A stretch of DNA of 38,767 nt from the IMG/VR virus record IMGVR_UViG_3300009194_000025, positions 1 to 38,767 of that record. One strand, given 5' to 3'. Below the pieces are notes generated by a model. The model searched no databases and was not told the DNA's origin. It saw only the letters and a program-made list of their open reading frames with translations. Source of the stretch: a virus. Its lineage: Duplodnaviria; Caudoviricetes. Below, piece after piece: positions 2 to 36,685 of this stretch (position 1 is the stretch's first letter; every line of letters starts with the position of its first letter). Position numbers and translations under genes: made by a program.

Positions 2-343
2 GATGAGAACTATCGCAATCCAGAGCAGATGCGGGAGCAGGCCATTGAAACCCTGGCCATGATTCGAGCCAGAACGCGAGGCACAATCAGTGGGACTGAA
101 AGCAACAGCGATGTGCCTGGACTTCAGGTTGTGGGTAGCGAGTCAGAACAACTGCCAGCAGACGGCAGCGCGGTGCCGCAGCCAGACGGCAGTTATTCTG
201 GGCGTGTGAATCGTGATCCAGAGCCATCCGCATCGGCCCCTTCCAGACCGGCGCCAGCCGCTGCAGTCGAGCATTTGAGGAAGAACCCGCAACTGGCGGA
301 CCAGTTCCAGAAGAAATACGGCTATCTCCCGGAGGGTTTTTAA
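2..343 (+). CDS. 5'-truncated virion/ejection-region protein (C-terminal part)
   Basis: Frame is open from the window start (GAT GAG AAC...). The TAA stop overlaps the ATG of the giant gene (TAATG at 341-345). C-terminus ...HLRKNPQLADQFQKKYGYLPEGF. Function inferred from position only. Confidence 0.7.
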   Translation, partial: DENYRNPEQMREQAIETLAMIRARTRGTISGTESNSDVPGLQVVGSESEQLPADGSAVPQPDGSYSGRVNRDPEPSASAPSRPAPAAAVEHLRKNPQLADQFQKKYGYLPEGF

Positions 344-3300
344 TGGCCAATGCCTTTGACCGATTCGATGCGCAACGCAGCAAAACGCCCGAGCCAACCG
401 GAAACCCGTTTGATGCATTCGATGAGGTTGCCGAAACGGAAGCTTTGAGTCAGTACGGGCCGTCGAAATCTTCCAACGCAGGTCGGTCATTTCCGAAACC
501 CGAGCGCACGCCTGGCAAGGGACTGCAGCCGCCGGAGAATTACGACTCATTTGTAGAAGCCACCGGAAAAAGCCTGAGCAATGTTCCCGAACGCCTGCAG
601 CAATCCTTCGGCGGGCTTGTTCAGATGCTGGGCGAGGACATGGGGCAGAGCCGCGAGCAGTTTGTGCAGCAGTCTGCCAATCGGCTCGGGATTACGCCGC
701 AGGAATACAAGTTGATGGCATGGGCAGGCAACGAGGGCCTGGTGGATCCGGAAACCTCGATCCCGGAGGCGCTTAAAAGCCTGAAGTCTCGAATGCTCAC
801 CGAGCTGTCTCCGGAGCAGCAGGCTCAGGTGGCCGATATGGGGCTCATTAACCCCGAAACGGTTGCCGCCAAAGGCCGGGAGTTTCGAGCTGATGCGCAG
901 TCCACCATGAAACCTGTGAATGCCGAGCCTGGCAGCCCCGAATACTACGCTAGTGCCGCCATTGGCAGCATTGCAGAAATGACGCCCGCCCTGATTGCGA
1001 GCGCACTCACCCGAAATCCCGCTGTCGGCATGACCATCATTGGCGGTCAGGTTGGCGGTGAGTCCTACGGCACAGTCCGCGATAAAGGCTTGTCCGTTGA
1101 CGAGTCTCAGCGCTATGCGTTTGCGCAAGCCGCCGCTGAAGCGATCCCCGAATACCTTCCGATCGCCAAAATCCTGAAGCCCGGCGCTAACTTCTTCAAG
1201 AAGGTGTTTGATACCGCTATCGCTGAATCGTTGCAGGAGGGCGTTACCGCTGCCCTTCAAGCCGGCATCGACAAAGATACCATTCGCCCGGATATGACCT
1301 GGGGCGAGGCGCGTGGCTTGATTTCCGACAGCATGATTATTGGCAGCATTGCCGGCCCTGGCATGGTGGCCATTACTGAGCCACTGGTGCGTTATCGCAA
1401 CCGGCAGTCACCGGAAGGCCAAGATCCTGAATCGGCCCCGCCAGTCTTGACCGAGACGCTAACTCAACCGGCACCGGACGCAGACATATCGGCATTCGGC
1501 CTGGATGTAACGCCGAGCGAAGCTAACCCATTTGATGTGTTCGATCAACGGGCGTCTACCCCTGAAGCCACCGCAGAGGTGGGCGCAGGGGACGGCCATC
1601 CGGTCGGGCGCAACGTGCAGGCAACTGAACCATCCAGCGAACCGCAGAGCCAAGAGCAGCCAGAATCGTCCGAGCCTGCACTTTCCGAGAAAGGCACCGG
1701 TGTATTCCGCGTTCCGGTCGATCAGATCAAGGTAGATCCGCAGCAGTATCAATTCCGAAGCCGCGTAAACGAGCAAGGTGTGGATCAGCGCCTGTCTGGC
1801 GTAAAGAAGTGGGATGATCGCCGATCCGGCTCTGTATTGCTGCACCGCCGGGAAAATGGCGACCTGTATGTGGCGGACGGTCACCACCGTGTCGATCTTG
1901 CCAAGAAGTTGGGCCAGGGTAAAATCAACGCGCAGATCATTAATGAGGCTGATGGCGTGACGGTTGAGCAGGCCCGCGTTGAAGCGGCAATGAACAACAT
2001 TGCCGACGGTAAAGCTGAGCCCCTGGACGTGGCCAAGGTATTCCGCGGCAGCGAAGTGCCTGCCAATGAAATCCGCAGTACCTACGATCTCCCATCCAAT
2101 CAGGTTGTGCGCGACGGCGAATCACTCTCCAATCTTTCGGATAACGTTTTTGGTATGGTTGCGGCCGGCCAGATGACCGAGAAAGATGGCGCTGCCATTG
2201 GGGCTGCCTTCACCGAGCAAGCCCAGCAGGAAGCCGCTGCCGAAGCCTTTCAGAAAGTTCAGCCGAATACCGAATACCAGCGCCAACTTCTGATTAACGA
2301 AATCCGTGCCGCAGAGTTCGCGCAGGCCCAGGGAGAGCAGGGCGGCCTGTTTGGTGACGACCCACAGGAAGTGTCGTTGATGCAGGATCGCTTGAAGGTT
2401 CTGGACTCTCTGCGTCAGCGCCTCAATTCCGACAAGCGCCTGTTCAAGAGCCTGAATGACAACGCTGACAGGGCCGGAGAGGCTGGCAATCAGATTGCCA
2501 CCGAGGCCAACGAATCCATTACACAACAGAGCGCTCGCAGCCTGGACCTGATTGGCCGGGTGACAACAACCCCAGCCCTGAACGAGATGGTGAACCGTGC
2601 CGCTCGCCGGGTGTATGATGGCGAGAGCCGCTCGAAAGTGGTCACCGAACTGAAGCAGGAGTTGATGAGCTATGAACAGGGAGCAGATGCAAAAATCAGC
2701 GGAGAACGTAGCCAGGCACAGAGCCGCAAACCGGCTGCTGAATCAGGGCAAGAGCCGCGAGAAAGTGAATCAGTACCTGAGCCAGACACCACTGGAGCAG
2801 ATCAAGGCGGACAACCAGAAAGCGAAGTAACGCCGTCGCTCGACCTCGAAACCCAGACCGAGGAACAACTGGCCGAGCAGGCCCGCGCCCGGGAAGAAGC
2901 CGAGCAGGCCAAAACCGAGCAGCGCAAGCAGGCAGAGCAGCGGGCGCAGGCTGACGAACAGGTGGACGAATTCGCTCTCACTGGGTCGGAACGCACTGCC
3001 GATGTGGCCATGGCTGCAGGACAAGAAGACCTGCTATCTCAGCCCGACTCCGAAACCGACACGAATCCTACCGAAGGCCAGAAGGGTTCTGACCGGCCAG
3101 ACAATCGAGAAGTTGCGCCAGAAGATGAAGGTCGTGGCCGCGATAATAGCCGGACAGAAGATGCAGAAGGCGGCGAAGAAGTAAGCGCAGCCAGTGAAGC
3201 AGAGAATCTGACGGCAGGCCAGCCTGCCAGAAGTGGCTATCGCAAGATCAAGGACATCCTGCCGGAAAGCCTGGCCGAATCGTTCCCTTCGCATCTCATG

Positions 3301-4335
3301 CGTAATAAAGGGTCTTCCGAGCCACACGAGCGCATGTTCCCGTTTGACACATATAGCTCGTTCGATGCGATCGTTGAGCAGACAGGGCAAGAGCATCCTT
3401 CATACCTGAACTACAAGCCAGACGAGGTTCAGCCTGACGGCACTATCTACACGCCAGAAAATCTGATCCACGTCCTGAAGGGGTTGGAATCCGGCGTAAA
3501 GGATATGAACGGAAAGCTCAATGCCGGCAAGCAGCAGTATGGGGACGGCGCCCCAACGCCGAAGAAGTTGCTCGACACGTGGATTCGCCTGAAGCAGACC
3601 GAAAACACGGTCGCCAATTCACGTGCGAACTACCCGGATGCGTGGGCCATTTACGACCGGCGCCAGAAGGATTTACAGAAGCTAAAAAAAGGCGACAAGG
3701 TTCACAGGCCGTACAGCAGCCCTGAATCTCCGTATGGAACTATTGGCAAGATTATCCGTAAAGGGCCGAAAAACTGGCGGGTAAGCCAATCGCCAGGATC
3801 GCCACATTCAAGCCTGATCCCCATTGAGGCACTGGCTCCGGAGGGGGCTTTTGAGTCTGAGCCTCAAGGCCAGCAGAAAACCGAACAACAGGAGGTTGCA
3901 CAGCCAGCCGATCCGGTGAATCGGGACTCCGTTATATCTGATTTTGGCGAGAAGATCGAAGGCGCCCGGAAAGACTACGCCAGCAAGATGAAGGCTGCGA
4001 AAGAGAAGGACGTTGCCGCTGTACCGCTATCCGAATCCTGGCCTGAGCCCAACTATGAAAAACTGATCGAATCCGGCGCCGATCCGGTTGCAATAGGTTT
4101 TGCTCATGCCGCCCGAGATGAAGTTCCGCCAAAGCCCCGCAAAGGCTGGAAGCTGAAAGGCTGGACGACGCAGGTCGAAACGCTGCGATCTGTCTCGGAA
4201 AGCATCATCGACGGTAGTGTGTCAGCATGGATGACGTGCGCAACCTGGCAGAGCAAAAAGAGTTCAGCGCTGTCTCGTCTTACGTCATGGGTCGCGCTGA
4301 ATTGTACGCCGAGGTTGGTCACAGCAAGAGCCTGA
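343..4335 (+). CDS. Giant polyvalent (internal virion/ejection) protein, segment 1: N-terminal NPFD repeats, hydrophobic helical region, ParB-like domain, start of LPD5-like domain; frameshifts at about 4220
   Basis: SD GGAGG at 331-335. Motifs ANAFDRFD/GNPFDAFD/ANPFDVFD, ParB-like VPVDQIKVD...QFR...YVADGHHR, and DFGEKIEGARKD (LPD5-like). Sequence after about aa 1293 is non-protein-like, while frame 4227 continues the domain. Confidence 0.8.
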   Translation: MANAFDRFDAQRSKTPEPTGNPFDAFDEVAETEALSQYGPSKSSNAGRSFPKPERTPGKGLQPPENYDSFVEATGKSLSNVPERLQQSFGGLVQMLGEDMGQSREQFVQQSANRLGITPQEYKLMAWAGNEGLVDPETSIPEALKSLKSRMLTELSPEQQAQVADMGLINPETVAAKGREFRADAQSTMKPVNAEPGSPEYYASAAIGSIAEMTPALIASALTRNPAVGMTIIGGQVGGESYGTVRDKGLSVDESQRYAFAQAAAEAIPEYLPIAKILKPGANFFKKVFDTAIAESLQEGVTAALQAGIDKDTIRPDMTWGEARGLISDSMIIGSIAGPGMVAITEPLVRYRNRQSPEGQDPESAPPVLTETLTQPAPDADISAFGLDVTPSEANPFDVFDQRASTPEATAEVGAGDGHPVGRNVQATEPSSEPQSQEQPESSEPALSEKGTGVFRVPVDQIKVDPQQYQFRSRVNEQGVDQRLSGVKKWDDRRSGSVLLHRRENGDLYVADGHHRVDLAKKLGQGKINAQIINEADGVTVEQARVEAAMNNIADGKAEPLDVAKVFRGSEVPANEIRSTYDLPSNQVVRDGESLSNLSDNVFGMVAAGQMTEKDGAAIGAAFTEQAQQEAAAEAFQKVQPNTEYQRQLLINEIRAAEFAQAQGEQGGLFGDDPQEVSLMQDRLKVLDSLRQRLNSDKRLFKSLNDNADRAGEAGNQIATEANESITQQSARSLDLIGRVTTTPALNEMVNRAARRVYDGESRSKVVTELKQELMSYEQGADAKISGERSQAQSRKPAAESGQEPRESESVPEPDTTGADQGGQPESEVTPSLDLETQTEEQLAEQARAREEAEQAKTEQRKQAEQRAQADEQVDEFALTGSERTADVAMAAGQEDLLSQPDSETDTNPTEGQKGSDRPDNREVAPEDEGRGRDNSRTEDAEGGEEVSAASEAENLTAGQPARSGYRKIKDILPESLAESFPSHLMRNKGSSEPHERMFPFDTYSSFDAIVEQTGQEHPSYLNYKPDEVQPDGTIYTPENLIHVLKGLESGVKDMNGKLNAGKQQYGDGAPTPKKLLDTWIRLKQTENTVANSRANYPDAWAIYDRRQKDLQKLKKGDKVHRPYSSPESPYGTIGKIIRKGPKNWRVSQSPGSPHSSLIPIEALAPEGAFESEPQGQQKTEQQEVAQPADPVNRDSVISDFGEKIEGARKDYASKMKAAKEKDVAAVPLSESWPEPNYEKLIESGADPVAIGFAHAARDEVPPKPRKGWKLKGWTTQVETLRSVSESIIDGSVSAWMTCATWQSKKSSALSRLTSWVALNCTPRLVTARA
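2672..2830 (+). CDS. Candidate nested +1-frame small protein (52 aa, MNREQMQKSAENVARHRAANRLLNQGKSREKVNQYLSQTPLEQIKADNQKAK)
   Basis: ATG at 2672, TAA at 2828-2830, AGGAG about 10 nt upstream. Looks like a helical protein while the host frame here is low-complexity linker. Confidence 0.45.
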   Translation: MNREQMQKSAENVARHRAANRLLNQGKSREKVNQYLSQTPLEQIKADNQKAK

Positions 4336-5564
4336 AGGGCCTGCGATTCCATAAGGCTGACTTTGCTCTCTGGAATGGCGAGAAGGATGTTACCAAGTGG
4401 CTGATCGAGAAAAACCAGAAAGCCACAGCGTTCGATAACATGCCAAGCCAGTTGGTCGAAGCCGACACCAAAGAAGAAGCGATCAAGAAGTTCCGCAAAG
4501 TGCATGAGTCGCTGGGCGAGAAGGGCAAGACAGACAAGAAAGTCCGTTTTGACATTTATTCTGACCGCCGCGACAAGACCGATATATTCATTGGCAAGAA
4601 AATCGGCAAGGACGTTGTTCGGATTAAGGAGGGGTTCGATTCGGTCAAAGAGGCCCGGGAATACCTGAATGCCAAACAGGATGTGCTTGAGCGCATTCTG
4701 GACAAGATGAAGAATATCCCGGATCACCGCAAGGCGACCAACTCTCCCAGGGTCGGTGTGGATCACCGCAATGGCGGCGACGTAACGCCGGAAGCATTCG
4801 CGGAAGCGTTTAATTTCCGCGGGGTTCAGTTCGGAAATTTTGTAGAGCAGGGTCGCCGGCAGCAGGATCTTAACGAAGCCTATGATGGCCTGATGGACCT
4901 AGCCGGGATACTCAACGTTCCCGCTAAAGCTCTGTCCCTGAATGGCGAGTTAGGATTGGCCTTTGGTGCACGGGGCAAGGGCGGTAAAAACGCTCCGAAG
5001 GCGCACTATGAGTCCGGCAGCGTGGTCATTAACCTAACCAAGAAGGCCGGCGCGGGCTCTCTTGCACATGAGTGGTTCCATGCTCTGGACAACTATTTCG
5101 CCCGCCCTCGCGGCTCAGAATCCAGCGCCCGACGCTATGCCACTGACGGAAATCCAGATATAGCCGTGCGCCCGGAAGTTATTGACGCTTTCCGCAACAT
5201 CCGCCAGACGGTCAACCGCATCCGGATGCGCGAGCGTAGCCAGAAGCTGGACAAGGTGCGCACCAAAGCCTACTGGTCAACCGATGTGGAAATGACCGCA
5301 CGGGCCTTTGAAAGCTACGTGATCGAGAAGCTGAAAGACCAGGAAGGTGCCAACGACTACCTGGCCAATATCGTATCGGAAGAATACTGGGAAGCCTCTG
5401 AAGCGCTGGGCATGGAGGACAGCGACAGCTATCCGTACCCTGAAGCAGCAGAGATTCCGGAAATCCGGGCGGCCTATGACAACTTGTTCAGCGTGATTGA
5501 AACAGTTGAGCAGCCAAACGGCGCAATCATGGTGCGGGAACAGAATGGCGTGCCTTACTACTAG
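4227..5564 (+). CDS. Giant polyvalent protein, segment 2: LPD1-type zincin-like domain
   Basis: Motifs FRGVQFGN, LGLAFGARG, AHYE, SLAHEWFHALDNY (HExxH) and YWSTDVEMTARAFESYV. Same frame as 5832..11705 (both starts are 0 mod 3), separated only by the TAG at 5562-5564. Confidence 0.8.
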   Translation: MDDVRNLAEQKEFSAVSSYVMGRAELYAEVGHSKSLKGLRFHKADFALWNGEKDVTKWLIEKNQKATAFDNMPSQLVEADTKEEAIKKFRKVHESLGEKGKTDKKVRFDIYSDRRDKTDIFIGKKIGKDVVRIKEGFDSVKEAREYLNAKQDVLERILDKMKNIPDHRKATNSPRVGVDHRNGGDVTPEAFAEAFNFRGVQFGNFVEQGRRQQDLNEAYDGLMDLAGILNVPAKALSLNGELGLAFGARGKGGKNAPKAHYESGSVVINLTKKAGAGSLAHEWFHALDNYFARPRGSESSARRYATDGNPDIAVRPEVIDAFRNIRQTVNRIRMRERSQKLDKVRTKAYWSTDVEMTARAFESYVIEKLKDQEGANDYLANIVSEEYWEASEALGMEDSDSYPYPEAAEIPEIRAAYDNLFSVIETVEQPNGAIMVREQNGVPYY

Positions 5565-8500
5565 GTAAGGGAAGATCAAATTTCCCTCGATTTTGACGCG
5601 GAGCCAGAAAATGACGGACAAGCCAGCAACCTACCAAGTGGGCAACGTGGTGCAGATAATGCCGCCACAGAAGCCACTGATACTGGACGGAGATCGCCAA
5701 GAATACAAAATCAGCGGCAACGAGCCCGACAGATCGAGCGACAGTCGTTCTTCCACGGCCTCCGGGAAGTAACCAACGCCGCCGAAGCTGCACACGTACT
5801 TGCGCCCTTCCGAAAAGACGCCCACGAAACCATGCTTGCCCTCGTTATGGACGAGGACAGGCGCCCGCTTGCCATTATTCGCCACACCAAAGGTACTGTT
5901 GACGGTACTGCTGTTTACCCAGAGCGGTTCATTTCAGATATGGTCAGTGTTCCCGGCGCCGATTCTGTCTGGCTTTCGCACAACCACCCTTCTGGAACTA
6001 TGTCGCCCTCTGGCTCCGACATAAAGATCACCCAGAAACTGGCACCAATGATCAAAAATGCCGACCTTAAACTGGAAGGTCACGTAATCATCGGGTTTGG
6101 CCGAGACCACACCGCCTTTGACGTATCCGACCGGAGCGACGGCGGGCTATCAATAACCGAAGCCGCCGTTCGAAAGCACAAGATCCCGGTGTTGGAGCGC
6201 CAAATCGCCAGCAAGACCGGAATGAAAAACGCAAAGCCAATTAAATCGCCAGATGATGCTGTTAAGGCGCTGAAAGACATTGCCGATAAGGATCAGACCG
6301 GCGTAATGCTGCTGGATAATGCCAATAGGCCGCTTGGATTTCTGGATCTTTCCGGGTATGACCTTGAGGCGCTGCGCGGAACAAGCGCTTACCGTGACGT
6401 GCTACAGGCCATTGCTTCGACCAACGCCAGCTCCGGCATTGTCCAGGCTGGCAGCGGCGTCAGAGACACCCAAAACCTTCAGCGCATGCTGGCTGACACG
6501 GGCGAATTCAGGCTGCTGGACGCGGTGCATGTCGATATTATGTTTGAGCGTGACGTTGATTACGGCAGCGCTGCGAATATGGGCGCACTGGAAACCAGCG
6601 GGGCATGGTTTTCACTCGATGGCGAATACCTCCGAACCAAAAACAAGCGCACCGACGCCCTCTCAGCCACCGAGGCCCGCACCCACGCAAGCACCCTAAT
6701 GCGCGACTGGAAGGGCCGACCTCCAGTTATGATTGCCGACTCCATCAGCGAGTTCCCGCAGCGGTTGCGTGCAGCCATACGCAAGGCCGGCGCAGAAAGC
6801 GACATGCGCGGCGTTTACTTCGAGGGCAAGGTTTATATCCTGGCCTTCCGCATACCTTCCCGGGCAGCGCTGGAAGAGGTGGTGTTGCACGAAGTGGTGG
6901 GCCATTACGGCCTGCGCACCATGATGGGCGCTGAATTGAAACCGCTGCTGAATCAAGTGTATCTGAAGTTCGCCCGCACGGATCAGGCGAAGAAACTGAT
7001 TCGCAACTACTTCCCGAAAGGTAATTTCAGCGCCAGTAACAGCAATCACCGCCTGACCATTGCTGAGGAACTGCTGGCGCACCTGGCCGAAACCGGCAAG
7101 CACCAGAAGCTGTGGAACAAGATTGTCGCCGCTGTGCGCGAAGGGCTCAGAAAACTTGGCTTTACGCTGGAAATGACGGAGGCTGATCTGCTTGGGATCT
7201 TGGCAGGAGCACAGAAGACCGTGGAGCAAGGGGGTATTTCCCGGCCATCCGAGGCCGACAACCATTTCCGACGCGCCTATCACGGCACGCCGCACCGGTT
7301 TGATAAGTTTTCGCTAGAGGCGATTGGGACAGGCGAGGGGGTTCAGGCATTTGGTTGGGGAATTTACCTAGCAAGCCGGAGGTCTATTGCCGAATACTAC
7401 CAAGAAAGCGTTTCTAACGTCTCTGGCGGTGGGCTTAGTCTTGCTGGGGTCGTGCCAGCCTCTGCGAATGAAGGCCTCTCTAATGGAGCTTGGGTTGCGG
7501 CCAAAGACCTGTCCGAGCTTCTTGTACCCAACCCCAAGAACGTAAAGTTGTTTGGCGATCTCGATATCAAAGGTCAAAGGAGAGTGCTCTCTATGATGCG
7601 CGCTATCCTGCAAGACCGAGAGGTTCTCGATAGCGTTGTCAGCCTTGTCCCCATTGATATGGTGAACATGCTCGGAGGTCAAAAGCTTTCTGCCCAGGCT
7701 TTGCTCAACAATCCAGCGATGCTCATAGACCTGCTTCCCGCCAACCCTGATAATCTTGTAGCCAGCAGCATTTCGGCCATGGATATACTGGCCCCGGCTG
7801 TGGCACTTTCGGCTGCAAAAATTCATACCGGTCTTGGTCGTTTTGATGTGGCGGCGAGTGATTTCGTTTCCGCAGGCGGCACAGTTAACCATGGCAGTCT
7901 CCGAGATGTTTACGGAAAAATACCCCATCCATCCGAGTTTCGCAAGGGCAATCTTTACGAAGTCGAAATCCCCGACGACAGAGACCTTCTTGATTACGAC
8001 AAGCGCTTGAACGATCAACCTCCTGGGATCACCGATGCAGTCCGGGCCATTACCGACGAGCAGCATGGCGAGGGCACCTTTGACTATTGGATGGAAGCCA
8101 ACGAAGAAGGCGGTGATTACCGCGAGTGGCGCGACAACCTCATGGAAGAAGTTGAGGACCGCGACCTATCGCTGGCGCTCAACGAGAAGGGTGTGCCGGG
8201 GCTTCGCTACCTCGACGGAGACAGCCGCATTGATGCCGCTAACGGGGCTACCCACAACTACGTCATCTGGGACGAATCCGTGGTATCGGTGCAAGCCGTG
8301 AACGATGAAATGGCGCAGGCCGAGGCGTATTTCAGCCGGAGTGGTCAGAAGCAGACCGACACCGAAGCCTTCCGCAAGTGGTTCGGTGCAAGCAAGGTAG
8401 TGGATGAGAGCGGTGAGCCGCTGGTGGTCTATCACGGCACCGGGCAGGATGTGGCAGCCTTTGACAAAACGGCCATTGGTGAAGAAACGGACTTTGGGAT

Positions 8501-11500
8501 TTTTGGGCAAGGTTTCTACACAATAAGCGACCCCGAACTTGCAAGTTTTTATGCGGCTAGGGCAGGGCGGAAACGGCATAGCGGCCCCAACGTAATGCCA
8601 GTTTACATAAAGGCTGAGTCACCGCTTTGGGTTAAAGAGGCAGGAAGAGACACAGAAACCAGTTTTGAGCGAATAGAGCATCTGATTGATGCGTTTAAGG
8701 TCGAGCACCCTGACGCGGATCGCAGGCTATACCCGATACTTGAAAGAGGTAATCTTTCTGAGGATTTTATTGAAGGCGATGATCAGTCAATATCTGAGCA
8801 GGTAAGCGAACTCATCGAAGACTTTGAGTTTGACTCGGTAATTTATGAGTTTGACGATGGAACTAAAGAGGTAGTGGTTTTTGAGCCGACACAAATCAAA
8901 TCCGCCACCGGCAACTCCGGCACTTTCGAACCCGACAATGCGGATATTCGGTTTAGTCGCAGCACCGCACCCGCTCTTGACCCTCAGCCGTTCGGCCCTC
9001 CCAGCGACACCCTGATCCGCCGCCTTGTCTCTAAAATTGCCGACAAGCATACGGTACTCAAGGGCGTCCAAAAGAACATTCAGGAGCAATTCGGAGAAAT
9101 CCCGGAGCCTGCCAACGCCTACCGCGCCGAAGAACTGTTCCACGGAAAGGTGGAAAATGACATTCGACTGATCCAGGAAAACATGGTCGAGCCGCTGGCC
9201 AAGGCCATGTCGGAGAATGATGTATCGCTGAAGCAGTTGGACGAGTTTTTGTACGCCCTTCATGCCCCGGAGCGCAACCGCGCCATTGCCGAGCGAAACC
9301 CGGAGATTCCCGAAGGCGGATCCGGAATGACAGATGCTGAAGCCGCTGCGATCATTAACAAGGTCGAGAAGTCTGGCAAGCTGAAACAGTATCGGGACCT
9401 GGCTAAGCGGGTTCATGACATGCTGGCCATGCGCCGGAAGATCCTCAAGAGCGCCGGCCTGCTGGATGAAGAAACCGTTGGCGCCTGGGAAGCCTCGTAC
9501 AAAAACTATGTGCCGCTGAAGGGCTGGGCTGCGGATGAGCGGCAATCGGACACGCCACGCATCGGGAAGGGCTTTGCCATCGCCGGCAAAGAATCCCAAA
9601 TGGCGGCGGGCCGGAAGTCCCGGGCTGCATCGCCACTGGCCAATACCATCAGTGATTTGTCGGAAGCTGTGTTGCGCCGCCGAAAAAACCAGGTCGGCAA
9701 TGCCTTTATGAACCTGGTCGAAGCCTACCCGAATGGCAGCTACTGGCAGGTTTACTCCGACGAGAATCCGGAAGCCCAACGTAAGGCAGTGAGGGTCAAA
9801 GATCCGGCGACCGGCAAGATGAAAGTGAAAGTGCGCGAGCAGACCGTGCCCATGGCAATGATGAGCGACCGATATTTCACGACCAAGCGAGATGGCAAGA
9901 CCTACTACATCAAGATCGAGGACGAGCGCCTGATGAATGCCATGCGCAACATCGGGCCGGACAACAGCAGCCTGCTGGTTCGCTCACTGTCCGCCGTGAC
10001 GCGTGTCATGTCCTCGCTCAATACCAGCTACAACCCCGAGTTCATTATTTCCAACTTCTCCCGGGATATTCAGACTGCGTTACTGAACCTAACGTCGGAG
10101 CAATCCAGTGAAGACGGAAAGGCCCGTGGCAAGAAGATTGCAGCCAAGACACTCAAAGATGTTGGCACCTCCATTCGAGCCATCAATGCCAGCCTGAAGG
10201 GCAAGAAGTTGACTGGGAAGGCAGGAGAATGGCAGGCACACTTCGACCAGTTCCGGGCCGATGGCGCCAAAACCGGCTGGTTCGATATGAAGGATATCGA
10301 CGGCCAGATGCAGGACCTGGAGAAGATGATTGCCGTGGCCGGTGGCGGGCCTGTCAATTCCGTGCGCAGAGCATTCAGGGCCACAACCGATTGGGTCGAA
10401 AACACCAACAGTGCCATCGAAAACGGCGTGCGCTTGTCTGCTTACGTTAATGCGATCGAGGCCGGTATATCCCGCTCACAGGCCGCATCCCTGGCCAAGA
10501 ACATGACAGTGAACTTCAACCGCAAGGGCGAGCTCGGAACGATGATAAACGCCCTGTATATGTTCGCAAATGCGTCAGTGCAGGGTACTGCCAACTTTGT
10601 GCGCACCCTGGGCCGGCTGAACGGCGTCAAGGGTGATCCGGCCTGGCAGCGCATGCACACAGCGCAGAAGATTGCCGTGGGCATGGCCGTGGGTGGCTTC
10701 ATGCTGTCGCTGCTAAACCGACTGGTGGCCGGCGAGGATGATGACGAAGTGAACTGGTGGGACAAGGTGCCAGATTACGTCAAGGAGCGGAACATTGTCA
10801 TCATGAAGTCCTTAGCGGGCGGCGAACCTGGGGAATACTGGACGATCCCGCTGCCGTATGGGTACAACATATTCCCGGTGATCGGCACTCAGATTGAGCA
10901 CATTGCTTTCAGCGAAAACCAGTCTTCCGGTGACGCCGCAAGCAACGTGGTACTTGCCGCCCTGGGTAGCTTCTCGCCCATCGGCTTCGAGCAATCGGAA
11001 GAATTGTACGGGGTTCTGGCGAAGAACATCATGCCCACGATCTTGCGGCCAGTCGCCAGCATTTCCCTGAACGAGAATTTCATGGGTGGGCCAATCTATA
11101 AAGAGAACTTTCCGTTTGGCACCCAGAAGCCGGACAGCGCCCTCTATTTCCGGAGCACGCCGGAAGCCTTCAAGGCACTTGCCGAGGGGCTGAATGACGC
11201 TACCGGTGGCAGCGAGTTTCGTAGCGGCGCGGCAGATCTTAGCCCTGACGTGATGCAGTTCCTGGTCGGCTACTACGGCGGCGGAGCCTACAACTTCTTT
11301 ACCAGCCGAACGCCCAACTTCTTGCAGAAAGTGGCGACTGGTGTTGAGTTGGAGGACCGAGAGATTCCGTTCGTGCGCAAGGTCAGCGGCAAGGTGCTGC
11401 CGTATGAGGATCAGTCGAAGTTCTACGACCGGCGCAATGAAATTCAGCAGTTGGTAGCCGAGCGCAAGGCACTGAAAGGGCGAGAGCGCATTGAATTTAG

Positions 11501-11705
11501 CAAAGACTACCGCGACAAGCTTCGCCTGAAGCCCATCATTGACTCGACCGAGAAGCGGCTGAAAATGCTGCGAGAGCAACGGGATCGGATTGAACTGATG
11601 GATCTGTCGGCGTCGGAAGAAGATAGGCGCTTGCAGCAGGTTGAAAGACAGATGAAGCGGGCGATCAACCAGTTCAATAAGCGGTACAACGAAGCGGACG
11701 ATTAG
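5565..11705 (+). CDS. Giant polyvalent protein, segment 3: RadC/JAB, degenerate JAB copy, metallopeptidase-like (HEVVGH), two ADP-ribosyltransferase-like domains, LPD38-like C-terminus
   Basis: Frame is open from 5565 (VREDQISLDF...EVTNAAEAAHVLAPFRKDAHETMLALVMD). Motifs SHNHPSG...SGSD...HVIIG; VLHEVVGHYGLR; AYHGTPHRFDKFS...GTGEG.QAFGWGIYLA...GNLYEVEIP; VVYHGT...FGQGFY...EVVVFEPTQIKSATGN; TVNFNRKG...LYMFANASVQG...IPLPYGY. The ATG at 5832 has no SD. Confidence 0.85.
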   Translation, partial: VREDQISLDFDAEPENDGQASNLPSGQRGADNAATEATDTGRRSPRIQNQRQRARQIERQSFFHGLREVTNAAEAAHVLAPFRKDAHETMLALVMDEDRRPLAIIRHTKGTVDGTAVYPERFISDMVSVPGADSVWLSHNHPSGTMSPSGSDIKITQKLAPMIKNADLKLEGHVIIGFGRDHTAFDVSDRSDGGLSITEAAVRKHKIPVLERQIASKTGMKNAKPIKSPDDAVKALKDIADKDQTGVMLLDNANRPLGFLDLSGYDLEALRGTSAYRDVLQAIASTNASSGIVQAGSGVRDTQNLQRMLADTGEFRLLDAVHVDIMFERDVDYGSAANMGALETSGAWFSLDGEYLRTKNKRTDALSATEARTHASTLMRDWKGRPPVMIADSISEFPQRLRAAIRKAGAESDMRGVYFEGKVYILAFRIPSRAALEEVVLHEVVGHYGLRTMMGAELKPLLNQVYLKFARTDQAKKLIRNYFPKGNFSASNSNHRLTIAEELLAHLAETGKHQKLWNKIVAAVREGLRKLGFTLEMTEADLLGILAGAQKTVEQGGISRPSEADNHFRRAYHGTPHRFDKFSLEAIGTGEGVQAFGWGIYLASRRSIAEYYQESVSNVSGGGLSLAGVVPASANEGLSNGAWVAAKDLSELLVPNPKNVKLFGDLDIKGQRRVLSMMRAILQDREVLDSVVSLVPIDMVNMLGGQKLSAQALLNNPAMLIDLLPANPDNLVASSISAMDILAPAVALSAAKIHTGLGRFDVAASDFVSAGGTVNHGSLRDVYGKIPHPSEFRKGNLYEVEIPDDRDLLDYDKRLNDQPPGITDAVRAITDEQHGEGTFDYWMEANEEGGDYREWRDNLMEEVEDRDLSLALNEKGVPGLRYLDGDSRIDAANGATHNYVIWDESVVSVQAVNDEMAQAEAYFSRSGQKQTDTEAFRKWFGASKVVDESGEPLVVYHGTGQDVAAFDKTAIGEETDFGIFGQGFYTISDPELASFYAARAGRKRHSGPNVMPVYIKAESPLWVKEAGRDTETSFERIEHLIDAFKVEHPDADRRLYPILERGNLSEDFIEGDDQSISEQVSELIEDFEFDSVIYEFDDGTKEVVVFEPTQIKSATGNSGTFEPDNADIRFSRSTAPALDPQPFGPPSDTLIRRLVSKIADKHTVLKGVQKNIQEQFGEIPEPANAYRAEELFHGKVENDIRLIQENMVEPLAKAMSENDVSLKQLDEFLYALHAPERNRAIAERNPEIPEGGSGMTDAEAAAIINKVEKSGKLKQYRDLAKRVHDMLAMRRKILKSAGLLDEETVGAWEASYKNYVPLKGWAADERQSDTPRIGKGFAIAGKESQMAAGRKSRAASPLANTISDLSEAVLRRRKNQVGNAFMNLVEAYPNGSYWQVYSDENPEAQRKAVRVKDPATGKMKVKVREQTVPMAMMSDRYFTTKRDGKTYYIKIEDERLMNAMRNIGPDNSSLLVRSLSAVTRVMSSLNTSYNPEFIISNFSRDIQTALLNLTSEQSSEDGKARGKKIAAKTLKDVGTSIRAINASLKGKKLTGKAGEWQAHFDQFRADGAKTGWFDMKDIDGQMQDLEKMIAVAGGGPVNSVRRAFRATTDWVENTNSAIENGVRLSAYVNAIEAGISRSQAASLAKNMTVNFNRKGELGTMINALYMFANASVQGTANFVRTLGRLNGVKGDPAWQRMHTAQKIAVGMAVGGFMLSLLNRLVAGEDDDEVNWWDKVPDYVKERNIVIMKSLAGGEPGEYWTIPLPYGYNIFPVIGTQIEHIAFSENQSSGDAASNVVLAALGSFSPIGFEQSEELYGVLAKNIMPTILRPVASISLNENFMGGPIYKENFPFGTQKPDSALYFRSTPEAFKALAEGLNDATGGSEFRSGAADLSPDVMQFLVGYYGGGAYNFFTSRTPNFLQKVATGVELEDREIPFVRKVSGKVLPYEDQSKFYDRRNEIQQLVAERKALKGRERIEFSKDYRDKLRLKPIIDSTEKRLKMLREQRDRIELMDLSASEEDRRLQQVERQMKRAINQFNKRYNEADD
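5611..5772 (+). CDS. Candidate nested +1-frame small protein (53 aa, MTDKPATYQVGNVVQIMPPQKPLILDGDRQEYKISGNEPDRSSDSRSSTASGK)
   Basis: GGAG-7nt-ATG (5600-5613), TAA at 5770-5772. Exactly spans the low-complexity linker between the LPD1 and JAB domains. Confidence 0.45.
   Translation: MTDKPATYQVGNVVQIMPPQKPLILDGDRQEYKISGNEPDRSSDSRSSTASGK
7368..7892 (-). CDS. HNH homing endonuclease (174 aa), nested antisense inside the giant gene
   Basis: N-terminal Zn finger CAAC...FCSRKC, GY...VYEHR.IVEQ.LGRKL...EHVHHINGDKADNAIENL HNH core, C-terminal HTH-like segment. SD GGAG 6 nt before the ATG at 7892. Confidence 0.88.
   Translation of the reverse strand: MVNCAACGNEITRRHIKTTKTGMNFCSRKCHSRGQYIHGRNAAGYKIIRVGGKQVYEHRWIVEQSLGRKLLTSEHVHHINGDKADNAIENLSVLQDSAHHREHSPLTFDIEIAKQLYVLGVGYKKLGQVFGRNPSSIREAFIRRGWHDPSKTKPTARDVRNAFLVVFGNRPPAC
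7917..7945 (-). promoter_or_regulatory. Candidate sigma70 promoter for the nested HNH gene
   Basis: Minus strand TTGCGA-N17-TATTTT, about 25 nt upstream of the HNH ATG. Confidence 0.5.
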
Positions 11706-13693: not shown

Positions 13694-14313
13694 GATTCAC
13701 CCTCCTTCGACTTGGGCGGCTGGGGACGGGTTAGGCCGGTGGGTTTCCAGCAACTATCCTGATAAATTCTGTGGCCTAGAGGGCCTTCTGCGCCGATTTG
13801 TTCTGCATAAACAAGCCTTGGCGAATCATCCAAAGTTCGCATGAAGTGAACCATGCCAAAGGGATCTTCATCCGCCTCAGTCGGCAACCTCTCACTGCAC
13901 TTAACCCACCCATCACCCTCTGGCTGGGGTGTGGTGGACAGCAGGGCGTAGGCCCGATCCATCATTGCCCTGTGCTTGTATGGCGCATCTTCATCTACGC
14001 TCATTTCGTAGTCGTGCATTGCCTGTACCATTTCCTGAAGACACTCGCGCCACCCCTCCGGAACACTCCCTTGCTGACCCTCTGGCTGAGGTGTGGTGGC
14101 TAAGGCCTCGCAAAACAAATAAAGCCATGGCTCTTTGTCTTTCCATGCGCAGTAACTGATGCCTGGTCCGCGAATGATGTAACCATCTGTTTCAGGGTCG
14201 TCAATATGCGTGAGACGCCAGCCATCCGGCACACTCCCTTGCTGGGCGGGCTCGTTGGTGGCGTCCAGGTTGTTGAACGCCTCTGCGAACTGGTCTTTGT
14301 TGTGGATGTTCAC
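13690..14313 (-). CDS. Modular hypothetical protein with a DUF551-like C-terminus
   Basis: GWVKCSERLP...W.P...PQPPK; internal repeats QQGSVP(D/E)GW and TTPQPEG. Confidence 0.7.
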   Translation of the reverse strand: MNIHNKDQFAEAFNNLDATNEPAQQGSVPDGWRLTHIDDPETDGYIIRGPGISYCAWKDKEPWLYLFCEALATTPQPEGQQGSVPEGWRECLQEMVQAMHDYEMSVDEDAPYKHRAMMDRAYALLSTTPQPEGDGWVKCSERLPTEADEDPFGMVHFMRTLDDSPRLVYAEQIGAEGPLGHRIYQDSCWKPTGLTRPQPPKSKEGES

Positions 14314-15953
14314 GCGGCACCCCGCACGATTTCCAAGGCCATGTCGTAGCCTTCCCAGTTATCGACACCGGCGGCGGCCAGGGCCAGGTACATCTTGCTG
14401 TTGTGCTCCAGTTTCTCGTATTCCTTCTTGGAAAGAGTCACGGTTTCAGTGGAGTTTGGCTTACCGTCCATGCGCTCGGGTGTCGGGTCTGGATAAGTCA
14501 GCGGCGGCATTTCAAAGGCTGGCTTCTTGCCTTGGCTGCTAGGCGATACCCCATGACTCCGGGCTTCCGCTTCTTGGGCACCCAGCGCATCTTCTTCGGC
14601 AGCCCGCTTCGCCTTCGCTTCTTCCTCCTGCCGGATCTTCTCCCGCTCGGCATCCAGGCGCTTCTGTTCGGCTTCCTTGTGGTCGGCAATGCGGGATTTG
14701 ACGATGGCGGCGAAGTCGTCGGCGGGCTTGCTCACGATCATATTCAGGTCACTGAACAGGAACCGGTAGTCAGCCGCGTGCTCGTCAATCTGCTTCAGGT
14801 TGCCGCGAACCGTGCTGGCGGTTTCATTCACCTCGATCTTGGCCTGGGCCATGAGGTCATCGCAGGCAGACTTCATGCTGCTGATGGTTTTCTTGCCCTT
14901 GATCGCGCCAGCAAAGTCCGGGATCTGCACCGGCATGTACTGGCCAACGTCAATGCCGCGAACGAACGTGTCGAAGTCCTGCTTGGCGGTCAGTACGATT
15001 TCCTGCTTGCGGGCGTCCTTCTCGGTCTTGACCGCCTTTTCCAGCTTCAGCCGGATCTGGCGGGTTTCCTCGCTGATCCGGTCAATGGTTTTCACCACAT
15101 CGTCTACGGTCTGCATCTGCCCAAGTACGTTTTCCTTGGCACCGGACAGGCGCTTCTCCACATCCTTGCAGAACTTCACCGCCTTCTCGGCGTCCGCGAA
15201 ATCGGTGTCGGTCTGCAGGTCGGTATTGATGCCCGCCAGGGTGGCCATGGCGTTCGCTTCGAATTCAGCCAAGTTGGACGATTCCACCATACCGCTTGCA
15301 CGAACCACCAGGGAGGGCAGGGCATCAGGGGCTTTGCCTTCGGGCTTTGGCTGCTCGGTTTCCGGCACTTCGTATTCAGCCAGGTCTTTGGCGAACTGCT
15401 CCCAGGCTGCCAGCAAAGGCTTAAATCGGGATTCGTCGCGCTCGATCCAGAGGTGTTTGTAGTTTTCGCCCTTCTCGTCACAGGCGGTAAACAAGATCCG
15501 CTCAGCGCCGGACAGGGCGAACTGCTGGTCAAGCTGGACCATGTAATGCTCTTCGAGCTTTCCGGCATCGATCTGGGCAAACAAGCTTTCGGATGCCAGT
15601 TTACATTCCCACCCGATCTCGCCCGTAATTGAAAGCCCATCCATAGATGCCAAAAACCCGTTTTCCTCATCATCCAGGACGATTGGGAAAAGGTCTTCCC
15701 CGATTTCCTTCTCGGCGATAATTCTGCCAGCGGCCTCGGCCCGGTGCCCCTTATCAAATATGCGCTGCTGATGCTCGGATACCTCCGGCACAAGGCCGGT
15801 TGCCTTCTGCTTCAGCAAATCGCTGCGGCTCTGGTATTTGGATTGGCCCATCGCAGCCGGGGCTTCACTCGCGGTAAATCTTTTCGACCTGAGCTCTGCC
15901 CACTGCTGCGATCCCTGCGGAATGTTGACGATTTTTCCTTGTTGAAATTTCAT
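14310..15953 (-). CDS. YqaJ/lambda-exonuclease family recombination nuclease with a coiled-coil tail
   Basis: Motifs QGSQQW...R...TASE..AAMG.SKY, GH..E, LASMDG...WECK and Q.DQQ. Confidence 0.9.
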   Translation of the reverse strand: MKFQQGKIVNIPQGSQQWAELRSKRFTASEAPAAMGQSKYQSRSDLLKQKATGLVPEVSEHQQRIFDKGHRAEAAGRIIAEKEIGEDLFPIVLDDEENGFLASMDGLSITGEIGWECKLASESLFAQIDAGKLEEHYMVQLDQQFALSGAERILFTACDEKGENYKHLWIERDESRFKPLLAAWEQFAKDLAEYEVPETEQPKPEGKAPDALPSLVVRASGMVESSNLAEFEANAMATLAGINTDLQTDTDFADAEKAVKFCKDVEKRLSGAKENVLGQMQTVDDVVKTIDRISEETRQIRLKLEKAVKTEKDARKQEIVLTAKQDFDTFVRGIDVGQYMPVQIPDFAGAIKGKKTISSMKSACDDLMAQAKIEVNETASTVRGNLKQIDEHAADYRFLFSDLNMIVSKPADDFAAIVKSRIADHKEAEQKRLDAEREKIRQEEEAKAKRAAEEDALGAQEAEARSHGVSPSSQGKKPAFEMPPLTYPDPTPERMDGKPNSTETVTLSKKEYEKLEHNSKMYLALAAAGVDNWEGYDMALEIVRGAA

Positions 15954-18239: not shown

Positions 18240-18646
18240 TGGAATTACGCGCGAGCCGGAGCGCGATTGAAAAGCCGGTGACGTTGCGGGCCTTCGTCAC
18301 ATAAGCGAACCGGGATGGGAACCGGAGGAAAAAAGCCGCTGCACACGCCTGAACCTCCTTGCCGCAGCAGTATCGCGGTTTTGCAGTACCCAGGGTGAGT
18401 GTGCCGAGTAGCTGCCGTAAGCAGCTCATCTGAAAGCGTCCGGATCGGGCTTTTTCAGATGCGGAAAGGGTTGGGGGATTCCTGGCCGGCGCATCAAAGC
18501 AGTGAACTTGTGAAGTAGCAGCTGTGCGACAGCTGGCCCCACGAAATACTCGCGTCATTCAAAGGTGGGGCAACCAAACAGGCACAAAAAAGCCCGGCAG
18601 GCTACCAACCAAATACCGGGCTTTCACTCAAAGAGCTGAGGTAATT

Positions 18647-19441
18647 ATGAGCAAAGACACCCCAAAGCGCAAGCCGATACCGCCAAAGGTGCGGTTTGAG
18701 GTTTTTAAGCGTGACTCCTTCAAGTGTCAGTACTGCGGGCAATCGTCCCCTGACGTGATTCTGCACGCTGACCATATCAAGCCAGTTTCAAAAGGTGGCG
18801 ATAACTCCATCATCAATCTGATTACTGCCTGCCAGGGCTGCAACTCTGGAAAGTCGAACGTAGAGCTGGACGATGGATCGGCTCTAGCTAAGCAGAAGGC
18901 TCAGATGGATGAGCTAAACGAGCGCCGCGAACAACTGCAAATGATGATGGATTGGCGTGCCAGCCTGAAGGATATGGACACGGAGGTTGTTGAGACTCTG
19001 GTTGACGAAATTGAGTCAGTTATGAGCACCCGCGAAGTGAACGAGCAGGGTGAGCGCTCCGTCCGGAAGTGGTTTAAGAAGTATGGCTATACGCTGCTCA
19101 GCGAGTGCATTGAGCTTTCGGCATCTCAGTACCTTCGCTTCGATGATGAAGGCAATTGCGAGGACCAGGCAGCTCAAAAGTTTTTCAGCATGATTCCACG
19201 AATAGCCGCCAACAAGATGAAGTTTGGCGACGACCCCGATATGGCCCGCCTGTACTACGCGCGCGGAATTCTGCGCAACCGCCTCAGCTACTGCAATGAC
19301 CAGATGGCAATTGACCTCATGATTGCCGCCAATGAAATTGTTGGCGACCCCGAAGAGATGGTTGAGCTTGCTAAGCGGGTGCGGAACTGGACGCAGTTTC
19401 GGGATCAAGTGGGCGAAATTATTAAAGGGGCAGAGCAATGA
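18647..19441 (+). CDS. HNH endonuclease-domain protein upstream of the replication gene
   Basis: RFEVFKRDSFKCQYCG...LHADHIKPVSKGG....NLITACQGCN.GKS; SD GAGGT before the ATG at 18647. Confidence 0.85.
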   Translation: MSKDTPKRKPIPPKVRFEVFKRDSFKCQYCGQSSPDVILHADHIKPVSKGGDNSIINLITACQGCNSGKSNVELDDGSALAKQKAQMDELNERREQLQMMMDWRASLKDMDTEVVETLVDEIESVMSTREVNEQGERSVRKWFKKYGYTLLSECIELSASQYLRFDDEGNCEDQAAQKFFSMIPRIAANKMKFGDDPDMARLYYARGILRNRLSYCNDQMAIDLMIAANEIVGDPEEMVELAKRVRNWTQFRDQVGEIIKGAEQ

Positions 19442-26656: not shown

Positions 26657-27136
26657 ATGGCAAAGGTTATCTTTGGAAATGACGTTGTTTTACTTGATCC
26701 CGAAGATCTTTGGCTGCTAGAGCACAACGGCTTCAGTCAATGGAGCGTGAGAACAAACAATGGAATGAGATACGTAGGGCGCAAGCCTGTTCCAGGAAGC
26801 TCGGATAAAACCTACGAAAGCCTGCACCGACTTATCGCTGACTGCCCTGAAGGCATGATGGTTGATCATATTAATGGCAACACTCTTGACAATCGACGGA
26901 GCAACTTGCGCGTCTGCACTCATGCCGAGAATATGCGTAATCGAAAGATTCACAAGAACAACAAGTCGGGCTTCAAAGGCGTTTATTTAGATCGTATCAC
27001 CGGGAAGTGGAAGGCTCAGATAAGAAATAATCGGAAGAGGTTTTATCTGGGTTCCTACGAGACGCCAGAAGAAGCCAGCAAGGCATATTTAGATGCAGCC
27101 GAAAGGCTCCATGGCGAGTTTTTCAGGGCTGCATAA
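26657..27136 (+). CDS. Free-standing HNH-AP2 homing endonuclease
   Basis: LHRLI....GM.VDHINGNTLDNRRSNLR.CT..EN.RN, then AP2 domain NKSGFKGV....GKWKAQI......YLG.Y.T.EEA..AY..AA..LHGEF; AT-richer than its flanks. Confidence 0.92.
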   Translation: MAKVIFGNDVVLLDPEDLWLLEHNGFSQWSVRTNNGMRYVGRKPVPGSSDKTYESLHRLIADCPEGMMVDHINGNTLDNRRSNLRVCTHAENMRNRKIHKNNKSGFKGVYLDRITGKWKAQIRNNRKRFYLGSYETPEEASKAYLDAAERLHGEFFRAA

Positions 27137-35495: not shown

Positions 35496-35627
35496 ATGGC
35501 AGGTCCAACACGCGCGACCGGTTATCCGGACCTTTCCAGCACCAGTTCGAGCGGGTTTATCCCATCGATATGGAGCGGAAAGTTGGTAGAAAAGTTATAC
35601 GCATCAACAGCTTACGCTGAGATCGCT
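35496..35627 (+). CDS. Major capsid protein, exon 1 (44 codons)
   Basis: GAGGT SD; MAGPTRATGYPDLSSTSSSGFIPSIWSGKLVEKLYASTAYAEIA, containing the FIP.IWS.KL motif of P22-coat-like capsids. Too short to appear in the ORF track. Confidence 0.9.
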
Positions 35628-36685
35628 AGATAAAGTTGGCGATTTAAAACTGGTTCTGAATAACTGGAAGGCTTAGGCTAACCAGAGGCAAGCGCTAAGA
35701 CTTAGGAGCAGCCAAACAATGGCAAGGCTAAGCGAGAAATACATTGCGGGTTTCCTAGACTCCGATGGCAGTATCGGTATCGCGTACCGGTACATCGGAA
35801 AAAGTCGTGATTCATCGAAAATGCGCACGCATGTAATGATGAGTTTCACGCAATTGACCCGCAGGGATGATGTGCTATTCCGGATCAAAGAGGTTATTGG
35901 CGGTTCCATTCAGTATAACGATGAGCGCCAGGCGACAAGTCTAAAACTTCTTGGCAAGAAGGCCGAAATGGCTCTTGCTCGAATCCAAAAGCACTTGGTG
36001 ATTAAGCGCCACTATGCAGCAGTAGTTCTTGACATAGCTGGCAGTATTGTTGATCGGAAAGAGACAACCGCTTTTTTGAAAGTGGAGAGGAAAAGGAAAT
36101 CCTTGCCGCTACCCAACTATCCATCAAGGAAATGGATGGCGGGGTACTTGGATGGTGACGGATGTTTCGGAGTAAGGGTTCCGAAAAATCGAACGTCCGC
36201 TCAATTGACGCTGGAAGCGTCATCCTCGGACTATGATTCAGAGGGCATTGAGTTAATCCAGAAAGCATTTGGCGGTTCGATTGCCACGGCGTCAAACGGC
36301 ATTACAAGCTATACGCTGACCATGCCGCCATCCAAGGCCAAACAAGTTTTAGGCCATTGGGGCAAGTACGCGATCATCAAAAAACACCAAGCAGATTTCA
36401 TCCTTGGTTGCGCCAAGATGGGACATTACCGAGACGGTAAAAGCATCAAGGCATCAATGAAGCAACTGAAAGCGCAGCCGCACAGACTGAGTGAACCAGG
36501 GCTTATCAACAAATTGCTTGAAAACGTAACAGACATTGAAACGGCAAAAGAGAAAGGCCGCAAAAAATGGGCCGAGGGCGGATGTGGGTGCAACGCGCCA
36601 CACTACTGCTACGGACTATGCCGAAAGTGTTACGACAAGCAACGATGGGCTAAGCGACAGTCGGAATTAGCTAAGGCTAGTTAAG
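35628..36685 (+). mobile_element. Group I self-splicing intron (1058 nt) in the major capsid gene
   Basis: 5' site after U with P1 AUCGCU/GGCGAU (U.G pair); terminal omega-G at 36685; P3 CTGGTTC(35650)/GAACCAG(36493); P AACTGGAA, Q AACCAGAG; P7 GACTG(36485)/CAGTC(36658). Splicing restores EIA|NTIYEGEIK in frame. Confidence 0.92.
35719..36684 (+). CDS. Intron-encoded double-motif LAGLIDADG homing endonuclease
   Basis: Motifs YIAGFLDSDGSI and WMAGYLDGDGCF; AGGAG SD; C-terminal CGC...CYGLCRKCY. Confidence 0.92.
   Translation: MARLSEKYIAGFLDSDGSIGIAYRYIGKSRDSSKMRTHVMMSFTQLTRRDDVLFRIKEVIGGSIQYNDERQATSLKLLGKKAEMALARIQKHLVIKRHYAAVVLDIAGSIVDRKETTAFLKVERKRKSLPLPNYPSRKWMAGYLDGDGCFGVRVPKNRTSAQLTLEASSSDYDSEGIELIQKAFGGSIATASNGITSYTLTMPPSKAKQVLGHWGKYAIIKKHQADFILGCAKMGHYRDGKSIKASMKQLKAQPHRLSEPGLINKLLENVTDIETAKEKGRKKWAEGGCGCNAPHYCYGLCRKCYDKQRWAKRQSELAKAS

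Follow-up and report, generated by a model that had tools for sequence, protein, structure and literature searches.

The window (the whole stretch of DNA analysed, 38,767 nucleotides) is a 38.8-kb viral record, 67% complete, of a podovirus-type phage, assigned as such from its SU10-like portal and adaptor, its terminase and its RecT/YqaJ genes. The sequence was found in one subsurface metagenome run, and no RNA datasets were listed as containing it. A giant gene on the plus strand encodes a polyvalent protein, and an HNH endonuclease gene lies within it on the minus strand. The features of the locus are as follows.

343..11705, plus strand: gene of a giant polyvalent protein (virion-delivered type) with LPD5, LPD1, RadC/JAB, an HExxGH peptidase-like motif, two ART-type domains and LPD38
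4217..4218, plus strand: apparent frameshift in the window; the two bases are absent here in the X1 contig
5562..5564, plus strand: apparent in-frame TAG of the window, with C at 5562 in the X1 contig
7272..7404, plus strand: ART-like host domain, N-terminal half (AYHGT...GWGIYLA...IAEYY), within which the candidate target polymorphism is located
7368..7892, minus strand: HNH endonuclease gene, 174 aa, with a CxxC...CxxxC Zn finger, an HNH_3 core and a C-terminal HTH-like segment
7405..7946, plus strand: host-frame reading of the element, about 180 aa, with no stop and no Cys; junctions approximate
7464..7829, plus strand: predicted helical core of the host-frame reading (model residues 21-142, about 120 residues, block pLDDT 65-94)
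7650..7652, plus strand: host-frame Pro codon CCC, opposite the GGG that encodes the Gly of HINGD in the HNH; fixed in nested and variable in free-standing genes
7899..7902, minus strand: Shine-Dalgarno-like GGAG, 6 nt before the HNH ATG
7917..7945, minus strand: candidate sigma70 promoter of the HNH gene, TTGCGA (7940-7945), spacer of 17, TATTTT (7917-7922)
7947..8303, plus strand: ART-like host domain, C-terminal half (GNLYEVEIP...GVPGLRYLD...NYVIWD)

The giant protein is about 3786 aa long if its re-assembly is right, and is free of Cys (0 in about 3780 aa). Over its C-terminal 900 aa it shares 51% identity with giant proteins of 933W-type coliphages. For polyvalent proteins of the class with LPD5, LPD1, RadC, ART and LPD38, packaging and injection have been proposed (Iyer et al. 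2017, PMC5512222, available text). The initial annotation had cautioned that the host gene carries two upstream lesions. Neither is present in the Logan contigs of run X1, the probable source sample, and by frame arithmetic the X1 corrections unite the three ORFs of the giant gene; both lesions are therefore most likely assembly errors or strain variation, and the caution was dropped. A single X1 contig covers 7272-8600 and is identical to the window. Where the ART-like domain starts (7251-7301), a second X1 contig (depth 5.5, 4 differences) connects to other upstream sequence, which points to shuffled domains in a co-occurring phage. Relatives are also almost Cys-free, with 8 Cys in 33486 residues of the flanks at 24 related loci and 112 in 319070 residues of the best 150 of 1322 matches to a host-frame profile (see below), and the near-absence of Cys is a usable signature of this class of giant proteins. 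The ART-like domain scores 26.9 bits against Pfam PF18760 (ART-PolyVal; cut-off 31.2), and alleles empty of the element score 17-28 bits. Of the H-Y-D set, His and Tyr are invariant in 24/24, and an Asn stands in the last strand.

The core motif of the HNH protein, EHR...EHVHHINGD..DN..ENL...H..EH, is matched by Pfam HNH_3 above the cut-off (E 2.3e-9), and 12 of the 13 PHROGs families that match the protein are annotated as HNH; the HTH-like segment is based on pattern and on weak PDB-sequence matches. The plus-strand frame runs from 5565 to 11705 without a stop, straight through the HNH gene. Both 5565 and 7890 are multiples of 3, which puts the codons of the two strands in register, and none of the 10 Leu and 10 Ser codons of the HNH gene is TTA, CTA or TCA. 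This arrangement had been described in the initial annotation, including the gene's own Shine-Dalgarno sequence, and was reproduced in every respect. The TTGCGA-N17-TATTTT promoter candidate proposed there is likewise present. It matches the consensus at 8/12 positions and was not listed by a standard sigma70 scan, being below the threshold. A similar site recurs across the close clade of the HNH tree: TTG-N-TA(t/c)nnT lies at the same position in the other 8 members with upstream DNA, including 2 that are free-standing, and 9/9 such members have TTG..-16/17-TA(t/c).. 6-24 nt ahead of the HNH coding start; the site is not clear in about half of the distant members. The host frame reads the promoter DNA as an element-borne KIPHPSEF motif.

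The junctions lie at about 7405 and 7946, where 7410 and 7945 had been expected. The HNH gene had been located between the ART motifs, which is accurate for most of its length, but its tail runs into the host domain: the host motif LASRRSIAEYY (7368-7404), read in antisense, supplies the last ~12 HNH codons and the stop, a TAG that is complementary to the Leu codon of the host's GIYLA. Only about 53 nt of the insert lie outside the HNH ORF. The supposed insertion into a tolerant loop is right in that the site is variable; a native hypervariable slot was replaced, however, rather than a short loop enlarged (14 empty alleles have 72-184 aa there, the window 192 aa). The host-frame reading had no match in Pfam, including its LPD families, or in PHROGs. 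It had been cautioned that open antisense frames arise easily, and fairly so: for a single HNH gene of such composition the chance of an open in-register antisense frame is p about 0.04, and 8 of the 14 native empty slots have open antisense frames too. The single locus is thus not decisive, and the family is.

A search of IMG/VR with the HNH protein alone gave 80 loci, the 12 best of which comprise 10 distinct sequences. Nine of the 10 are nested, with no stop in the in-register antisense frame, and sit in ORFs of 667 to >2170 codons (that of L010 ends at the contig edge); polyvalent domains were found in the host ORFs of 8/9. Further scans raised the number of distinct HNH loci to 114, 24 of them nested and 90 not. 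Among the 25 top-scoring non-redundant HNHs, 7 of which came from host-frame searches, 22 have no antisense stops (0.75 expected); of the 18 among them that HNH-only searches gave, window included, 15 are nested. Stops or frameshifts in the host frame, named in advance as contrary evidence, are lacking in the nested homologues, which keep this frame open. A profile of the host-frame reading matched 1322 cluster representatives, 396 of them at E<=1e-10. The best 150 of these 1322, in which nesting was judged from protein context, include 124 proteins of at least 1000 aa, 130 with more than 150 aa on both sides of the match and 5 with two copies. The elements occupy the ART slot seen in the window, further slots of that domain, the inside of InPase (P0200), positions before ART-PolyVal, and linkers; by rough single linkage, 145 domains from proteins of at least 500 aa fall into about 60 flank clusters, the largest of which (55) is probably chained. 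At six loci (L009, L012, L114, L135, L144, L147) the nested HNHs bear extra Zn-finger or repeated HTH modules, and the host frame is open throughout. A search of a genome collection gave 2 MAG loci, and a search for longer homologues, limited by its word index, gave 5 proteins. Cultured phages yielded no match to host-frame queries, and ShiLan-type and free HNHs to HNH-frame queries (2 records examined); with no carrier match among plasmids either, these searches gave no cultured carrier of the element. Gene callers are blind to the family, since only the giant protein is annotated.

The conservation of the HNH motifs can be read through the complementary strand. In 144 of the 145 domains the residues are compatible with all 8 His, Asn and Asp codons of the HNH core. 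The eight host-frame columns opposite these catalytic residues hold only Val/Met or Val/Ile, as the codon complements allow, and the four columns opposite the Zn-binding Cys hold Ala/Thr in 140-144 of the 145. Ratios of the pN/pS type in the HNH frame are 0.33-0.44 (uncorrected and saturated), and 0.43/0.33 in the comparison of nested pairs with free pairs of equal divergence. By these comparisons the HNH catalytic motif is intact and under purifying selection, so the lack of antisense motif conservation that would speak against the initial reading is not found. The HNH frame is more strongly constrained than the host frame, and forces a good part of the apparent conservation of the latter.

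The host strand carries marks of its own. No TTA, CTA or TCA occurs in 565 Leu/Ser codons of nested HNHs, against 63/422 in GC-matched free genes, a zero that partly follows from the definition of nested. Host-frame Cys is absent from the 4254 residues of 24 inserts and from the 22065 residues of the 145 domains, whereas 29 free HNHs of matched GC content have 2.2% Cys in their antisense reading. Trp is absent as well, and Phe, Tyr and His are depleted. A-ending codons that would give host Phe, Tyr, Trp or Cys are depleted (53/590 vs 321/1025), and those that give host Ser are not (101/302 vs 188/481, p 0.13). The host Pro lies at an HNH-synonymous site and is present in 16/16 nested genes from HNH-only searches, against 2/65 free genes. 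Two nested genes with Arg at the Gly position of HINGD use AGG and keep the host Pro, and free relatives of the same lineages (L005, L138, L146) lack it. An RNA hairpin or an internal SD-ATG was considered as the cause of the fixed GGG; the xGG pattern, with its first base free, and the pattern of Cys and aromatic residues fit selection at the protein level better. Across the 145 domains the Pro is kept in 143, an Asp in 132 and Leu over Phe in 133/10, and the motif IPVDVVNML is conserved. At equal protein divergence, the similarity of synonymous third positions is 0.54-0.65 for nested pairs, higher than the 0.43-0.51 of free pairs. When pairs are matched in divergence, host-frame ratios of the pN/pS type are 0.65/0.50 (nested) and 0.85/0.77 (free). 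Neither pairs nor loci are independent in phylogeny, and the p values therefore overstate certainty.

Substitution ratios for each strand, a check proposed at the outset, thus find both frames constrained, the HNH frame more so, and by these measures both strands of the element are under selection. The host-frame insert had been regarded as a tolerant loop. Its open frame agrees with that description, but the insert is not passive, being under purifying selection and having a predicted fold. The avoidance of Cys, the fixed Pro and the host-frame ratios argue that it is neither removed at the RNA level nor bypassed, as such sequence would show none of these.

AlphaFold, given 24 nested sequences, returned a model of the host-frame reading with pTM 0.67 and 117/175 residues at pLDDT >= 70. 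As a control, the antisense of 24 free or short-ORF HNHs yielded pTM 0.15, with 0/215 residues at that level; its alignment, however, has more fragments (mean column identity 19%, against 34%), which may exaggerate the difference. Foldseek searches of the model against PDB and viral sets gave no match at E<=0.001, and the best VIA-align match (Z 5.9, rmsd 5.6, 99 aligned) was to generic helical bundles. The ESM Atlas gave no usable match to the host-frame reading, recognition being low. The absence of fold matches to the model does not prove a new fold. The host-frame reading is probably a constrained, folded domain, as judged from the model and its control.

The distribution of the element is patchy and lies beside a conserved host motif. 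The ART-like core of the window is sister (support 0.90) to that of an empty allele, L081, with 63% identity; its identity to five occupied alleles is 42-49%. Elsewhere in the giant protein, identity to L081 is 66-69%. The HNH of the window belongs to a clade of 10 (support 1.0) with L121, L134 and L002, and L002 sits at a different host site; deep nodes of the HNH tree are weak. A host allele nearest to an empty one, with an HNH that groups elsewhere, is consistent with homing. Synonymous sites between the window and L081 are near saturation, so no co-conversion boundary was placed. At the ART slot, GxY-F-A is found in 26/32 empty and 3/16 occupied alleles, the occupied form being GxY-L/M-A. 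We infer from this a candidate self-protection polymorphism beside the insertion, which is partial, as FA is still present in 3/16 occupied alleles. Three members of the close clade are not nested (L005 and L138, intergenic; L124, beside an unrelated gene). L005, L138 and L146 are free-standing, intergenic and antisense, two of them directly downstream of giant or ART-type genes, which suggests a stepping stone to or from nesting. At L124 (1879-2316), a close-clade HNH has a host ART remnant (A.YY) in its tail, an open host frame and an unrelated neighbour gene; relocation or a chimeric contig is possible.

The best explanation is an antisense, in-register mobile HNH gene through which the host ribosome likely reads, keeping the opposite reading as a helical domain, with no need of splicing; we hold this with good confidence. 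The parts that sequence comparison supports are the layout, the repeated occurrence at many sites, the purifying selection on each strand and the mismatch between host and HNH phylogenies. The HNH gene would be transcribed from the predicted minus-strand promoter, and its product would nick or cut alleles that lack the element, close to the conserved motif adjoining the insertion (in the window, around GWG-x-Y-F-A). Recombination would then copy the element in, replacing the native variable slot. On the plus strand, the host ribosome would translate straight through the element, and the opposite-strand reading would be retained as an extra domain. Selection on the virion-delivered host protein would purge stops, Cys and aromatic residues from the host frame and fix the Pro, and the result would be a compact, well-behaved passenger domain, which would make the element portable between loops and linkers. 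The initial annotation had claimed a further strategy of sparing the host, by backwards, in-frame insertion without splicing. The strategy is supported; read-through without splicing has, however, already been published for a same-strand case (PMC11855218, available text).

The strongest rival also assumes read-through, and takes the host-frame reading for an unstructured, tolerated spacer, filtered for stops, Cys and aggregation-prone residues, with the Pro as an anti-aggregation breaker in a hydrophobic run. Avoidance of Cys and aromatic residues needs no fold, the host-frame constraint is weaker than that on the HNH, no fold match was obtained, and the host-frame products of ShiLan are predicted to be disordered (PMC11855218, available text). 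The position-specific invariance of Pro, Asp and Leu argues against a spacer, as does the confident AlphaFold model, absent in the control, and we consider this account rather doubtful. It is improbable that the host-frame domain is excised or cleaved after translation, by the host protein's metallopeptidase or by self-processing, as a functional analogue of an intein. Polyvalent proteins were proposed to be processed by their own MPTase (PMC5512222, available text), the motif IPVDVVNML is conserved, and some inserts lie inside enzyme domains such as InPase; yet there is no Hint domain and no Cys, an intein-type C-junction motif occurs in only 11/145, and removal is not required, because the slot accommodates 72-184 aa in empty alleles. 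An intein proper was rejected, since 10/10 inserts matched no Pfam family (Hint included) at E<=1, Cys is absent from the host-frame readings and the AlphaFold model is all-helical.

An unrecognised self-splicing intron is very improbable. Rfam gave no match at the insertion site, over the window or in 8 relatives, a silence that is weak because Rfam also missed a probable intron in the capsid gene. The little sequence outside the HNH ORF and the overlap of the HNH tail with an exon motif stand against an intron, and spliced sequence would keep host-frame stops and Cys and fix no Pro; nor is the host frame inside the insert released from selection, as a group I or II intron would allow. Splicing at the RNA or protein level had been named as evidence against the initial reading, and no intron or intein features were found in the sequence. 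A free-standing homing endonuclease gene, intergenic or splitting its host, describes only L005, L138 and L146, the host ORF of the window being continuous. Next to no weight is left for a recent chance insertion with an accidentally open antisense frame in a dying gene, to which the single-locus p, the open antisense frames of native slots and the two lesions in the window would lend themselves: it is refuted by nested homologues with open frames and conserved HNH motifs, by family-wide recurrence with selection on both strands, and by X1 contigs without the lesions.

The nearest known systems are the ShiLan domain and the Pacc40 gp60 'hidden HNH' insertions in mycobacteriophage DNA methylases (Arsenault, Gosselin, Gogarten 2025, PMC11855218). 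In the available text of that report, a Zn-finger HNH is likewise hidden in another frame while the host frame stays open, with no intron or intein and a patchy distribution, and the ShiLan HNH is a relative of that of the window (32% identity over residues 1-153). The ShiLan HNH differs in lying on the host strand, in the +2 frame (position confirmed here), with no RBS and a methylase as host, and its host-frame reading is described as Ser/Thr-rich, with Cys, and predicted mostly disordered. The element of the window is on the opposite strand and in register, has an SD and a predicted promoter, is found in giant polyvalent hosts at dozens of sites, and has a host-frame reading that is selected and predicted to fold. 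It works like a ShiLan-type hidden HNH, and is not one by strand, host or host-frame product. A ShiLan-type HNH, same-strand and in the +2 frame, was also observed outside actinophages, in the DNA methylase of cyanophage Cr-LKS3 (L218, OM373202.1 39044-40894).

Inteins with anti-sense LAGLIDADG or VSR-like endonucleases are also known (bioRxiv 10.1101/2025.01.02.630785). As described in the available text, they share an endonuclease on the anti-sense strand of a translated insert, and differ in that the intein splices the insert out, in their LAGLIDADG or VSR nucleases and in an in-frame reading without recognisable structure; the element of the window has no splicing domain. Free-standing phage HNH genes such as Aeh1 mobE in nrdA and T4 mobA in gene 60 (PMC2988022, available text) are HNH homing endonuclease genes within coding regions that home without introns, and they split their hosts into two polypeptides, whereas the host of the window stays one ORF. 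In mitochondrial cox2 of Campsomeris (PMC5374615, available text), an in-frame insert has overlapping antiparallel ORFs and a putative nuclease; it differs in that RNA processing makes two genes, in the other type of nuclease and in its confinement to a single lineage. The phage polyvalent proteins of PMC5512222 are the same class of host gene, and the words homing, antisense and intein do not occur in the available text of that paper. Searches of an open-access library gave no account of intein-less antisense HNHs in polyvalent proteins, nor of a selected, folded host-frame product.

New here, as far as sequences and models indicate, are the antisense position without an intein, the gene's own predicted promoter, the wide spread and a selected, probably folded, overprinted domain. 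The 2025 idea of the hidden HNH is thereby extended from a few methylases to a widespread family. Direct sequence evidence for the translation and retention of such inserts, missing in the precedent, is provided by the insert's obedience to the Cys-free rule of its host. The family comprises more than 100 divergent natural cases of in-register antisense coding with complete overlap. In them a domain without known fold appears to have been born on an enzyme gene, and they are a testable system for overprinting and the origin of folds de novo. More tentatively, one stretch of DNA may be a gene for two proteins, a homing nuclease and, by antisense overprinting, a helical domain of new fold with a job of its own; that job, if real, could be to serve as a portable folding cassette that replaces splicing, or to direct processing or ejection of the polyvalent protein. 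On this more tentative reading the element would be a third host-sparing device beside introns and inteins, and the family a large natural data set on de novo domain birth under dual coding. The family also cautions that, in some cases, an 'unknown domain' in a polyvalent protein is the shadow of a selfish gene.

Other features of the window were noted. Further HNH genes comprise a free-standing HNH-AP2 gene (26657-27136, plus strand) and an HNH domain in a replication-region protein (18524-19441, plus strand). The major capsid gene (35496-37495, plus strand) is interrupted: a short N-terminal part extends to about 35630, a LAGLIDADG ORF follows at 35677/35719-36684, and the remaining capsid frame is at 36671-37495. 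The interruption is probably a group I intron, yet little non-coding DNA flanks the LAGLIDADG ORF. On the minus strand, 14313-15953 encodes a YqaJ exonuclease with a C-terminal domain like the T7 gp5.9 RecBCD inhibitor, and adjoins RecT.
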